Part shown: positions 3,001 through 12,000 of the stretch, one piece after another
How positions within the stretch are numbered: the first letter of the stretch is position 1
Layout of the letters: every line of letters starts with the position of its first letter
Assembly (NCBI RefSeq): GCF_053078305.1
Contig: NZ_CP166879.1
DNA: 64,000 bases
Reading direction: 5' to 3' (one strand)
Position numbers: made by a program

Positions 3001-6000
3001 GTAGGGCATAAGGTTTTCCATGACATTGACCGTGCCGCGGATGAACTCACGCACATCCGGCAGAACCGGATTCACCATCCCCACCACAGACTCCGTGGCG
3101 GACAGCACAATCATTTCCAGCATGACAGAACGTGCGCCCTGTGAATCCACCACAATGACGTCATAGGTCTGAAAAAGCGGATGCTGAAGCACATTACGCA
3201 GACGAAGGCGACCATCCGGCGCATGAAGCATGGCCGTTTTCAGTTGCTCATGGGGGTCGTTGGAGACGATGAGGTCAAGCCCCCTGACAGCCGTACGGGA
3301 AATGATGTTGTCAGGATGACTGAGGTCAGCCGTGCGCATCAGTAATTCAAAAAGACCGGCCGGCGCTTCATACGTCAGCGGAAAGATATTGCTTGCCGTG
3401 GGCTGTGCATGGTCTCCGTCTATCAGCAGAGTACGGAGGCCGGCATCTGCCAGAAAACCGGCAAGATTAGCAGACTGGGTTGATTTTCCTTCGCCACCTT
3501 TAGTGGATATAACCGGTAAAATTTTCATATAGCACACTCTTTAAAGTATGCAACCAATCACTTACACTACGGAAACCAGCCAGAATATTCACTTCACTAC
3601 CTGAATACTCGCAACACGGGGATCTAAAATCCCCGTGTCCTTGGTTCGATTCCGAGTCCGGGCACCAAATTCATATCAACGGACCTCCACGGAGGTCCGT
3701 TTTTCGTTTCAGAACGCCACAATTTAAGCGTTCTGCCTCCAAATCAATTCTACCGAACTCAACCAGATTCCCCCCACATCAACCCCATTGTGTGGGTATA
3801 ATTGCGGGTATACCCCAGTTCGACAGAATTTGTACCCTCTTTAACGCATTCAGAAGGCTGAACTATGGCACTGACTGACGCAAAAATCCGGGCTGCAAAG
3901 CCCACTGACAAGACTTATAAACTCACTGACGGGGCCGGCATGTTCCTGCTGGTTCATCCTAATGGTTCCCGTTACTGGCGTCTCCGTTATCGTATTCTGG
4001 GTAAGGAGAAAACCCTGGCACTTGGTGTGTATCCGGAAGTTTCTCTCTCCGAAGCTCGTACAAAACGGGATGAGGCCCGAAAACTGATTTCGGAGGGGGT
4101 TGACCCTTGCGAACAAAAAAGAGCTAAAAAAGTAGTCCCTGATTTACAACTCTCTTTTGAACATATTGCACGACGCTGGCATGCCAGTAATAAACAATGG
4201 GCACAATCACACAGCGATAAAGTACTCAAGAGCCTCGAGACACACGTTTTCCCCTTTATCGGCAACCGGGATATCACAACACTCAGTACCCCGGACCTGC
4301 TTATCCCTGTTCGTGCCGCAGAAGCTAAACAAATTTATGAAATCGCCAGTCGTCTGCAGCAAAGAATATCTGCTGTAATGCGTTATGCCGTACAGTCTGG
4401 CATCATCAGATATAATCCTGCTCTGGATATGGCTGGCGCATTGACCACTGTAAAACGCCAGCATCGCCCCGCTCTTGATCTTTCTCGCCTGCCTGAACTT
4501 TTGTCGCGTATTAGCAGTTACAAGGGGCAACCTGTCACCCAGCTTGCCGTTATGCTGAATTTACTGGTTTTTATTCGTTCCAGTGAACTCAGATACGCCC
4601 GGTGGTCTGAAATTGATATTGACAATGCCATGTGGACTATTCCAGCCGAACGCGAACCTCTGCCCGGCGTAAAATTCTCACACCGGGGCTCCAAGATGCG
4701 AACACCACATCTTGTGCCACTCAGCAAACAGGCTGTAGCCATACTGACAGAACTTCAGACATGGGCTGGTGAAAATGGTCTGATATTTACGGGTGCACAT
4801 GACCCGCGTAAACCAATCAGTGAAAATACTGTAAATAAGGCCCTGAGGGTGATGGGGTATGACACAACCCAGGAAGTCTGTGGCCATGGATTCCGGGCGA
4901 TGGCGTGCAGTGCATTGATTGAATCAGGTTTGTGGTCCCGCGATGCTGTGGAACGTCAGATGAGCCATCAGGAGCGTAATGGTGTACGTGCTGCGTATAT
5001 CCATAAAGCAGAACATCTGGAAGAACGGCGACTGATGTTGCAATGGTGGGCCGATTTTCTGGATGCGAACCGGGAGAAGGGTATCAGTCCGTTTGAATAT
5101 GCAAAGATTAACAATCCATTAAAATAGTAAGCAGTCCGGGCAATCAGCCCGGACTGCTTTAACTAATTATTTTTCTTTGAAATGATGACGAAGATTGATG
5201 TTTCTGACAAGTTACTCCGGCTTCCATTAAAGTCCCTTCGTCACGTTCTTCAGGCTATTTATGACTGTGATTAGCACCAGGAATATATGGTTTCCATGAG
5301 AGCAGGTAATAACCCCCGGTGTTTTCGGCTGCTCTGGTATCCCCGTCCAACACAGGCAGTTATTATAAACGGTAAAAAATGTATTCACTGTTATGAAATC
5401 AACAGTCCTGACGTACTGTTTAATGAGCTTGTGTTCTGAACCTCGTACAACCAGTTCATTTGATATCGAATTATAAACAAAACATTGCATCCAACTTTTT
5501 CAATATGGACAATAGCTGTCCATACGGTGATTTTATATTCGATAAATCAATGGATTTCATTGAGTCACAGGACTGGTAATGGATAAAAATGCTTTAGGGT
5601 TTGCCTCATACTGGCGCAACTCGCTTGCGGATGCTGAGTCAGGAAAGGGCAGTTTTAAACGGAAAGACGCCCAAAATTTCACTCACTGGCATGGGATAGC
5701 GGCGGGACGTCTTGACGAAGCGATTGTCAGTAAATTTTTTGAGGGAGAAAAAGACGATGTCGAAACGGTCGATGTCATCTTGCGCCCAAAAGTTTATTTC
5801 CGGTTACTGCAGCATGGTAAGGACCGTTCTGCAGGTGCGCCTGATATTGTTACCCCGATAGTGACGCCAGCCTTGCTAAGCCGTGAGGGTTTTTTATATC
5901 CGACGCCAGCGACCTCCATTCCCAGAGACCTGCTTGAACCTTTGCCAAAAGGAGCATTTTCGATTGGTGAGATTGGGCAGTATGACAAATACAAGACGAC

Positions 6001-9000: not shown

Positions 9001-12000
9001 TGAACGATACGATACCTCAATGGTTTATTGCGGTGATAACCTGAAGGGTGAGATTGAGGCTATTTATAATAGTCTTGAGAGGCGTCAGGTTTAGAGCAGG
9101 AATGGTGAGTAGCCATCTTATTGATCGTTTTCGAGCGTAAGATGGCTGAATGGAATGGCTATTATTGCACAGTCCTTAATTATAACATTCATACCGACAT
9201 GATTATCTTCTGTCCGGAAGAATCAGAGGCTGCGGTTTCAGACTGTCTGCTGGTACATTCCTTTCTCCGTTAAAAACCATAACGGGTTCATTATCTTCGT
9301 CTGTCAGCGGATTGAATGGCGGTATATTTTCAGTACGAATGCCGGTCAGCCACTGAAAAATACCTGCGAAATGACGGGCACTGATTTTCCTGCTGACGGA
9401 CTGATGAGACGTGATGTCACTGGCGGTAATAATCAGGGGAACGCTGTAGCCTCCTTGTATATGGCCATCATGATGAACAGGATTGGCACTATCGCTGACC
9501 GACAGCCCATGGTCAGAAAAGTAAAGCATGGCAAAATGACGGGAATGCCGGCGAAGGATACCATCAAGCTGACCGAGAAAGTTATCCAGTTTACTGATGC
9601 TGGCGAGGTAACAGGCAATCTTTCGGGGATACTGCTCCAGGTAATGATTCGGCCAGGAGTTAAGTAGGTCACACGGATTCGGATGAGAGCCAATCATGTG
9701 CAGGAAAATCACCTTCGGAGAGGATTTATCCGCCAGCGCACGTTCTGTTTCCTGTAACAACAACATGTCATCCGTTTTACGGGAAGCGAAGCTGCCTTTC
9801 TTGAGGAAAACGGTATGCTCCGCATCAGAAGCAATAACAGAGATGCGTGTGTCATGCTCTCCCAGTTTTCCCTGATTGGATATCCACCATGTGCTGTATC
9901 CTGCTTTTGCTGCCAGCGCCACCACGTTGTTGCCGGAATCAGGGTTCTGCTCATAGTCATAAATCAGTGTCCGGCTCAGGGAAGGTACGGTACTGGCTGC
10001 TGCCGATGTATAGCCGTCAATAAATAAACCGGGAGCCGTATTCAGCCACGGTGTGGTTGGTACGGGATAACCATATACCGACATATAATCCCTGCGCACA
10101 CTCTCACCAGTGACAATCACAATCGTGTCATACAACGGTGCTCCCGGCAGGATTTTCCAGCTGTCAGCCCTGTGCTGACTCAGTTGTTCATAACGCTGCA
10201 TTTCACGCAATGTGTCAGTTGTCCCCACAACGGTTCCTTTAACCATCCGCAACGGCCAGCTGTTTACAGAGCATAATACGAACAGCAGCAGTGCCAGCCA
10301 GTTACGGTGACCGCGGTGGTGTGTCCGCCAGAAAATAACCATGAACACCAGAATCGCGGCACTGACCAGAAAATGATAAACAGGAATCATCCCGGTAAAC
10401 TCCGCAGCCTCATCCGCCGTGGTCTGCAACAACGCGACAATAAAACTGTTGTTGATTTTACCGTACGTCATACCCGCAGGCGCATACAGTGCACAACAGA
10501 ACAGAAATAACAGAGCTGTAATGGATGTAAGGGTATTTCTGTGTGCAAGGAGCAGAAGAAGGAACAGCAGCAACACATTCCCGGTGGCATTCTTCTCAGT
10601 GTATCCGCATGCAATTGTGGTTATGACAGAAATAACAAAAAAGAATAAAAACAATAAAATCCGTGGTGTGTTGTCCGGACAAAACAGTTTTCTGATATTC
10701 ATCGGAGTATATCGGTAACATTATTATAAAGAGAATAAAATAATAAGAAAAACAGAAATATCCTGTAAAGCAGATAACAGACAACCCTGCAGTATAATTA
10801 CGTGATGGCAGTCTGGCGCGTAAGCCTGCATAAAACATTATTGTACTCTGTGTATCAACGGGTTACCCGGCCAGAACAGCCAGTACAAAAAATGCCCCCG
10901 CAGTGAGCATGGCAAGTTTTCCCCATACAATATGTTTCTCACCCCTCTTTTGTTTTCTTTTTCTCATATAAATGCTGGTGTTTACTCAGACGGAAGAGTA
11001 TTTCGTCTGTGCCAGTCTTCCGGATTATCCTGCTCATTTGTTCATGCATCCGGATACGTTTAATACAGAAGTCGATTTTAGCAACTGCCAGGTTTTTGTT
11101 GAGAGTCAGCGTGGCAGCATGATATGCATGCTGCCACAATATTAATGCCCGGGCATAATCATGATGTATTTCCGCATCTTCAGCTGCTGCCGTTATCTGC
11201 GCCCAGGACATCCGGCGCAGATACGGATAATGCAGTGTGACATCCGGGGAATGGTATGCCATTGAATACTCCTGTGGAGAATCATCATCTCCGGTTTATT
11301 CTCCTCCGGGGACGCAGACGCCCCGGAGAGCGAATTCTCCCACGTTTTCTTTTTTCAGCGCGCTGAAGGCATCCCGACAGGCTTTTTCAGTACGGAACTC
11401 CTGACTGTGAACGGCCAGTGTGGGTTGCCGGGCATCGCCGGAGGAGACATTAAAGGGGGATGAGAGCCAGAAAATCAGTATCCACATAGAACAGCCTTAT
11501 GATTTTGTGCGTTTGTATTTTTGCAGAATGCCGGGAGCCTGCAGGGGCGCTTCGTGAATTTCACGGATACATTCTGCGTCATGAAAATTTTCTCTGTACC
11601 GGGTTCATTCCGGCAGTATGTGGTGCATATGGAGCATTCTGTTCCGTGCGGCGCTGAGCTCATCAATATAGCGCCCCCGGAAAACGGGACCGTCATGCAT
11701 ATAGCACAGAGGGAACACTTCCACATTGTCACAATATTCCCGCCCCCACTCTTTTGTGACGGAGGCGTCATCGGTGTAAAACCATGTGTCGGGCATGCCG
11801 TTAGCCAGAAAGCAAATGTTCCATACATCGGGTACCGTAGACGTCTGTCATCATTCATACGGGTTATCTCATTCTATGGGCTGAATGCTGCTCAGAATCA
11901 GCCTGCTGAGACTGTCAGGGCTGCCGCAGCGACGACCGGTCGTTTTGCTGTAGCATTCCCGGCGTGTGTGGCACCAGGCGGCCGGTGTTTCATGAAGACG

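Follow-up and report, generated by a model that had tools for sequence, protein, structure and literature searches.

An mkoC gene of the Mokosh type II anti-phage system, very probably the first cargo of a P4-type-integrase island at a tRNA-Phe site

A gene for a helicase-nuclease fusion protein was analysed in a 64,000-nucleotide stretch of contig NZ_CP166879.1 (assembly GCF_053078305.1), hereafter the window. It is identified, with a probability of about 90%, as mkoC, which by itself constitutes the Mokosh type II anti-phage system, standing as the first cargo of an island with a P4-type integrase at a tRNA-Phe site. A first-pass annotation made from the sequence alone had called the gene Mokosh type II-like. 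That call was upheld by an end-to-end match to the PADLOC MkoC model and by 96% identity, over 399 residues, to an experimentally verified system, and the gene is Mokosh type II proper, which is stronger than "like". The gene and the parts of its product, which combine a superfamily 1 (SF1) helicase with a phospholipase D (PLD) nuclease, are as follows:

5579-9094, + strand: mkoC, Mokosh type II helicase-PLD nuclease, 1171 residues, 131.6 kDa (open reading frame call, profile matches, motifs)
5579-6388, + strand: MkoC-family-specific N-terminal domain, residues 1-270 (conserved residues and motifs in alignments)
6389-8563, + strand: Upf1-like SF1B helicase core, residues 271-995 (Pfam AAA_11/AAA_12, motifs, Foldseek)
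8564-9091, + strand: C-terminal PLD nuclease domain with a single HKD motif, residues 996-1171 (Pfam PLDc_2 and PLDc; weak NucT/DrmC matches)

The open reading frame (ORF) runs from ATG to stop, and the RefSeq coding sequence has the same length in other Escherichia coli genomes, so that the protein first proposed at these positions was borne out. Searching the defence models of PADLOC, as had been suggested, aligned residues 1-1169 of the protein with positions 1-1135 of the 1136-position MkoC profile (PDLC03924; E = 0, 1687 bits). The next-best models, MkoA and MkoB, covered the C-terminal half of the helicase or the PLD domain only and reached at most 125 bits (MkoA at residues 692-994 with 114-125 bits, MkoB at residues 1016-1138 with 61 bits). 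The same round of profile searches recovered AAA_11, AAA_12 and PLDc_2 from Pfam, and no NCBIfam model matched at its cutoff, the matches there being partial helicase and NucT/DrmC-like ones. Mokosh type II is defined as a single gene that encodes a Upf1-like helicase followed by a PLD nuclease (Millman et al., 10.1101/2022.05.11.491447), and the window protein joins the two in this order within one 1171-residue ORF. The gene stands alone, as first claimed: the integrase lies upstream, a convergent transferase-like gene (9203-10702) downstream, and no co-oriented partner accompanies it, an arrangement that is alike in the other E. coli inspected.

Mokosh type I possesses a homologous Upf1-like helicase core and PLD nuclease, but distributes them over two genes, and its MkoA carries a Ser/Thr kinase domain (10.1101/2022.05.11.491447), whereas the window gene is fused and has no kinase in Pfam. 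Membership in type I was rejected on these grounds, and because the MkoA and MkoB models cover sub-regions only. Further defence proteins, namely Hhe, the helicase-like protein of PLuB, ProA, PDC-S37, DrmC of DISARM and Nhi, share P-loop/AAA_12 segments or the PLD fold with MkoC; their models gave partial, low scores far below the curated cutoffs, and none matched over the full length.

The verified type II system is SG150 from E. coli 5-366-08_S1_C1, whose MkoC (IMG gene 2586378093) also has 1171 residues (Millman et al., supplementary file 11). The comparison with SG150 covers 399 of its 1171 residues, those that are printed. Over this part the two proteins align without gaps and agree at 384 of 399 positions (96%); none of the 15 substitutions, all within residues 1-399, falls in the Walker A motif or on an invariant N-terminal residue. 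The last ~90 nt upstream of the start codon are nearly alike in the window and the SG150 construct. Furthermore, a protein named EcMokosh II has been purified as a 132-kDa monomer and divided into constructs M1-A995 and L996-end (10.1101/2025.07.10.664194). The window protein has a calculated mass of 131.6 kDa, which fits this monomer, and carries A995 and L996 at the published truncation point. EcMokosh II is probably the same as SG150 or close to it. Given the identity to SG150, the shared A995/L996 boundary and the matching mass, the window gene represents one more allele of a defence gene that has been characterised before, hence a known system and not a discovery. RefSeq labels it "AAA domain-containing protein" or "DNA helicase", and relabelling as Mokosh type II MkoC is safe. 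Biologically the locus adds little, as Mokosh type II, described in 2022 and since purified, is a common system among E. coli.

The helicase core corresponds to the full set of Upf1/DNA2-like SF1 motifs that had been read from the sequence. Pfam places AAA_11 at residues 272-489 and 679-729 and AAA_12 at residues 777-969, and a script located Walker A (GPPGTGKT, residues 295-302, nt 6461-6484), motif II (DEAGQ, residues 697-701, nt 7667-7681), motif III (GDTEQ, residues 721-725) and motif VI (VAVSR, residues 954-958) where they had been proposed. With two RecA domains and SF1 motifs I, II, III, V and VI, the protein has the make-up of the Upf1-like SF1B group, and the motifs are conserved across an alignment of 69 homologues. 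By membership in this helicase family, MkoC would be expected to translocate 5' to 3' on a single strand. The AlphaFold2 model of the whole protein is confident (predicted local distance difference test 93.3, predicted template-modelling score 0.89). When the full model was searched with Foldseek, its best PDB matches were SETX with single-stranded RNA, UPF1, Aquarius, IGHMBP2, Sen1, DNA2 and nidovirus nsp13 (E = 1e-17 to 1e-11, the range being 1e-17 to 1e-13 for SETX, UPF1, Aquarius, IGHMBP2 and DNA2); sequence searches of the PDB led to the same Upf1-like family, and no Mokosh structure was present among the 50 PDB matches listed for the full-length model. The eukaryotic UPF1, SETX, IGHMBP2 and DNA2 thus share the SF1B fold and motifs with MkoC. 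The first RecA domain contains an all-helical insertion of ~260 residues (394-654, nt 6758-7540), modelled with long helices at residues 420-458, 462-495, 508-530, 538-586 and 597-630. Searched alone in PADLOC, this insertion matched MkoC and no other model.

The C-terminal part had been described as a single-HKD PLD nuclease, and this description holds: Pfam reports one PLDc_2 match (residues 1028-1138) and PLDc at residues 1110-1133, and the script found one HKD motif, HSKIVISD (residues 1114-1121, nt 8918-8941), extended by ...GSFN. Among the 69 homologues, conservation reaches at least 90% at H1114 and K1116 and is complete at D1121. The domain is of Nuc size with one HKD per chain, as in Nuc, Zucchini and BfiI, and weak matches to NucT and DrmC were also obtained. 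Mokosh is known to lose its defence when the ATP-binding site is mutated, and likewise with mutations in the PLD active site (10.1101/2022.05.11.491447).

Of 5,426 complete E. coli genomes, 888 (~16%) carry mkoC at a threshold of at least 90% nucleotide identity, in each case on the chromosome, and near-identical proteins also occur in Shigella, Citrobacter, Salmonella and Enterobacter. This patchy distribution, together with the swappable island slot described below, the intact full-length ORF with every catalytic motif conserved, and the 96% identity over 399 residues to a protein of demonstrated phage defence, excludes for practical purposes a housekeeping or repair helicase-nuclease akin to DNA2, or a decaying inactive copy. 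What speaks for such a reading is that RefSeq offers only the two generic names, that DNA2 is among the structural matches, and that E. coli K-12 carries nothing but a truncated paralogue, the pseudogene yjhR (b4308, KpLE2 region). The latter is homologous to the C-terminal 338 residues of MkoC, comprising the end of RecA2 and the PLD domain, and keeps HSKIVI.D; at 66% identity it belongs to a different MkoC lineage, and it has kept neither the N-terminal domain nor the bulk of the helicase.

EcMokosh II cuts single-stranded DNA (ssDNA), not double-stranded DNA, in vitro and nicks plasmid (10.1101/2025.07.10.664194). Millman et al. proposed RNA or RNA/DNA intermediates as the target of Mokosh (10.1101/2022.05.11.491447). 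A search of one literature library turned up no paper dedicated to the mechanism or structure of Mokosh. Mokosh type II may therefore be weighed in a form whose true target is RNA, either phage transcripts or R-loops, acting not on ssDNA but in the manner of MOV10L1 with PLD6/Zucchini, in which a Upf1-like RNA helicase passes RNA on to a PLD nuclease; this is judged rather unlikely. The helicase core is closest to the RNA helicases SETX (bound to single-stranded RNA), UPF1, IGHMBP2 and Aquarius, but the DNA-acting DNA2 of the same family matches too. Like MkoC, the MOV10L1-PLD6 pair of the piRNA pathway combines a Upf1-like helicase with a single-HKD PLD nuclease, and Cury et al., who call yjhR a fused Mokosh, emphasise this parallel and report its structural similarity to MOV10L1 (TM-score 0.74) and PLD6 (0.63). 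RNA substrates were outside the panel of the EcMokosh II study, as its authors note; on the other side, the sole biochemistry consists of ssDNA cleavage and plasmid nicking, and the sole phage restricted in its panel has an ssDNA genome (10.1101/2025.07.10.664194).

The N-terminal ~290 residues had been singled out as holding no motif that could be placed. In line with this, Pfam has no significant match in residues 1-270, and neither this domain nor the helical insertion matched the PADLOC MkoA or MkoB models. A word-index protein search returned only near-identical enterobacterial copies, and a diverse alignment was built from 50%-identity representatives. Searching 1.84 billion such representative proteins with MkoC gave 1,133 matches at E <= 1e-30, many of which are full-length relatives with 31-52% identity whose alignments start at residue 2-10. 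In the alignment of 69 sequences the N-terminal domain shows the motifs YWRNSLAD (residues 11-18) and IPRDLLEP (residues 114-121), and in an N-terminal alignment of 32 sequences Y11, D18, G104, R116, L119, P121 and Y224 are invariant. The structure prediction that had been called for over this region yielded a confident fold for residues 1-270, which share 24 to 52% identity among homologues. No counterpart was detected among solved structures, and MkoC-type proteins were the only ones found to carry the domain. Tentatively, and with somewhat less than even odds, it could be an undescribed sensor or gating domain that recognises an infection cue (the end or structure of a nucleic acid, or a protein of the phage) and so permits the helicase-nuclease to act. 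In that case Mokosh type II would have here its missing specificity determinant, a feature of the family as a whole and not of this locus. The invariant residues provide concrete mutagenesis targets for asking how Mokosh senses infection.

A single MkoC chain combines the family-specific N-terminal domain, the SF1B core with its helical insertion and a Nuc/Zucchini-type PLD domain. In the mechanism judged most likely, the ATP-driven helicase would load onto and move along single-stranded nucleic acid that appears during infection. Candidates are the genomes of ssDNA phages or intermediates of replication, with RNA or R-loops as a further possibility. In this scheme the N-terminal domain would recognise the substrate or trigger, or gate activity. 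The tethered PLD domain would then nick or cut the strand, and phage replication would be aborted. In Nuc, BfiI and Zucchini-type PLD nucleases, the active site is formed from two HKD motifs by dimerisation. As such a site needs two HKD halves, one per chain, two MkoC molecules probably pair on the substrate before cutting, which would leave the free monomer harmless.

Several points weigh against this picture or parts of it. The requirement for dimerisation before cutting is carried over from Nuc, BfiI and Zucchini, and the only oligomer data, obtained by mass photometry without substrate, give EcMokosh II as a monomer (10.1101/2025.07.10.664194). The same study contradicts itself on enzyme concentration, reporting in the text activity at all concentrations from 10 nM and in the legends of Figure 4c and Extended Data Figure 7 activity at 1 uM only, a discrepancy that bears on whether dimerisation or clustering is needed. 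In its panel of 11 phages, defence was narrow and reached only the ssDNA phage SECphi17. In addition, the natural target of MkoC may be ssDNA, RNA or R-loops, and the role given to the N-terminal domain has no homology support. Finally, phage defence by the exact window allele, which differs from SG150 at 15 positions within residues 1-399, is a prediction from SG150.

The island context of mkoC is defined by the following features:

3617-3668, + strand: truncated tRNA-Phe, 3' 50 nt ending in CCA (alignment to K-12 pheU)
3865-5127, + strand: P4-type tyrosine integrase, 420 residues (Pfam Arm-DNA-bind_3, Phage_int_M, Phage_integrase)
5129-5159, unstranded: perfect 13-bp G+C-rich hairpin directly after the integrase stop, probable terminator between int and mkoC
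5153-9210, unstranded: variable cargo slot bounded by the conserved integrase and the likewise conserved Ept-like gene, here holding mkoC and its 5' region
9110-9148, unstranded: 12-bp hairpin in the gap where mkoC and the Ept-like gene converge, weak terminator candidate, no T-run
9203-10702, - strand: phosphoethanolamine-transferase-like (Ept-like) gene, convergent, conserved right flank, not defence (NCBIfam CptA/EptA family, below cutoff)

The gene immediately upstream of mkoC has the domain architecture of a P4-type integrase, as the first-pass annotation had stated, and scores 248.7 bits against NCBIfam PRK09692, below the 434-bit cutoff. The 3' 50 nt of a tRNA-Phe lie 197 nt upstream of int, as is typical of P4-type islands. 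This remnant equals positions 27-76 of K-12 pheU save 2 nt in the anticodon loop, and its 5' half is missing. Being truncated, it escaped ARAGORN and an Rfam scan of 3400-5700; it was found by eye and confirmed by the alignment to pheU. The window has a single match to the 23-nt tRNA 3' end (0 expected by chance). No second copy with up to 3 mismatches, such as would form a direct repeat at the far boundary of the island, was detected within the 64 kb; the far end may lie outside or have decayed. Upstream of the remnant ends an integrative and conjugative element (ICE) of the SPI-7 type, with a ParA-like gene at 2641-3537. These 50 nt are what is left of the attachment site and mark where the island begins on its left and meets this ICE; the window copy of mkoC stands behind both. 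Elsewhere the same integrase comes after a complete tRNA-Phe or tRNA-Leu (tRNA-Leu in strain 317), and related islands without MkoC adjoin tRNA-Phe in strains LSN03-016011/A and 22272. In strain AR_0089 the equivalent 78-nt chimeric element (locus L002, 6897-6974) is annotated "tRNA-Ser"; its 3' 50 nt match pheU exactly, and this label is probably an annotation error for a pseudo-tRNA lying where two islands adjoin in tandem.

Comparison among strains places mkoC in a replaceable position between the integrase and a conserved flanking gene, in keeping with the earlier view of it as integrase-proximal defence cargo. Relative to LSN03-016011/A, which has tRNA-Phe, int and Ept without MkoC, homology ends at window position 5152 and restarts at 9211; the slot there holds no annotated gene but a 250-nt unrelated spacer (locus L008). 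In strain 22272 (locus L009, 6522-7938) the integrase is followed by a tetratricopeptide repeat (TPR) protein gene and a 76-residue hypothetical gene, and then by IS1. From this homology break and the arrangement in strain 22272, MkoC occupies a swappable integrase-proximal cargo slot, which in the strains inspected is filled by MkoC, by the TPR gene plus the small hypothetical gene, or by no annotated gene. The right-flank gene is annotated as phosphoethanolamine transferase in RefSeq genomes, and the module of int, mkoC and this convergent gene is contiguous in 636 genomes. In LSN03-016011/A, druA of Druantia lies a few kb downstream of the slot (L008 coordinates 3764-4027 and 7246-8030).

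The constant place of mkoC as the integrase-proximal gene of a tRNA-inserted island invites the reading that it mainly serves the island, by excluding competing mobile elements such as conjugative plasmids or ICEs that transfer as ssDNA, or filamentous phages, and thereby stabilising the island, with defence against lytic phages as a side effect. The adjoining SPI-7-type ICE, the narrow lytic-phage range in one panel and the ssDNA-only nuclease specificity (10.1101/2025.07.10.664194), which would suit incoming conjugative ssDNA, agree with it. It is nevertheless improbable: Mokosh was found and verified through phage plaque assays (10.1101/2022.05.11.491447), and in the window mkoC coexists with the very ICE beside it. 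Both RNA targeting and the exclusion of mobile elements would possibly be refinements of how the same known system, Mokosh type II, works.

The statement that mkoC has terminators on both sides stood in part. The upstream hairpin at 5129-5159 is strong, whereas the 12-bp hairpin at ~9110-9148 has no T-run, gave a folding z-score of -1.75 and is not a canonical intrinsic terminator. The stem of the upstream hairpin is kept in four strains. Its loop (5143-5147) reads AATCA in the window and AR_0089 and the reverse complement, TGATT, in 317 and CFIAFB20190157, with identical stems; the difference is a small hairpin-loop inversion polymorphism. The 452-nt spacer between int and mkoC contains an antisense ORF of 87 residues (5227-5490, - strand), which has no NCBIfam match and was treated as non-coding. 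In RefSeq genomes the locus-tag numbering jumps by one between int and mkoC, a hint at an earlier gene call that has been withdrawn. At 5504-5524, 55 nt before the mkoC start, lies an 8-bp A+T-rich inverted repeat, TATGGACA-N5-TGTCCATA, which is kept in four strains (with a loop change in one) and has one stem mismatch in the SG150 construct; possible roles are those of an operator or of a regulatory hairpin in the 5' region.

Among the more distant relatives, two full-length MkoC homologues whose surroundings were inspected are stand-alone and have no neighbouring gene in common. Several MkoC-like proteins, including P0156 (993 residues) and P0159 (976 residues), consist of the N-terminal domain and helicase, end near residue 996 and lack the PLD domain. 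The P0156 gene (within 4322-8148 of locus L010) directly follows a gene for an ART-PolyVal ADP-ribosyltransferase and is succeeded by a 57-residue ORF and an ISL3 transposase; its PLD domain may have been cut off by the insertion sequence, or the helicase may be paired with a different effector. For P0159 (locus L011, 288-3218), no PLD gene occurs within the 5.1-kb contig recovered. A type IV restriction system accompanies 882 of 975 E. coli Mokosh II instances, and its co-localisation with them is non-random (Wu et al., 10.1101/2022.08.21.504612). No type IV restriction gene was found among the window ORFs tested, a screen that covered part of the ORFs, and PADLOC revealed no other defence gene among the unassigned window ORFs that were tested.

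The island overall is a mixed virulence and metabolic one. Its cargo past MkoC (12350-44146) includes an ANR-family regulator, a 1363-residue autotransporter, a YdeO-like AraC regulator, two TonB-dependent receptors and a pdu (propanediol) cluster with pocR and a pduF-like channel gene. One of the two receptors is BtuB-like, and its ORF call has ~80 extra N-terminal residues, probably from a misplaced start. Further along, a 2300-residue ORF (57031-63933, - strand), matched by no model of NCBIfam or PADLOC, represents the C-terminal portion of a contact-dependent-inhibition toxin, CdiA; RefSeq labels it "effector tRNA nuclease", and it is found at a coverage of at least 80% in only 41 of 5,426 E. 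coli genomes. The CdiA gene probably extends beyond this ORF, since the CdiA genes that RefSeq annotates at the equivalent positions reach outside it.

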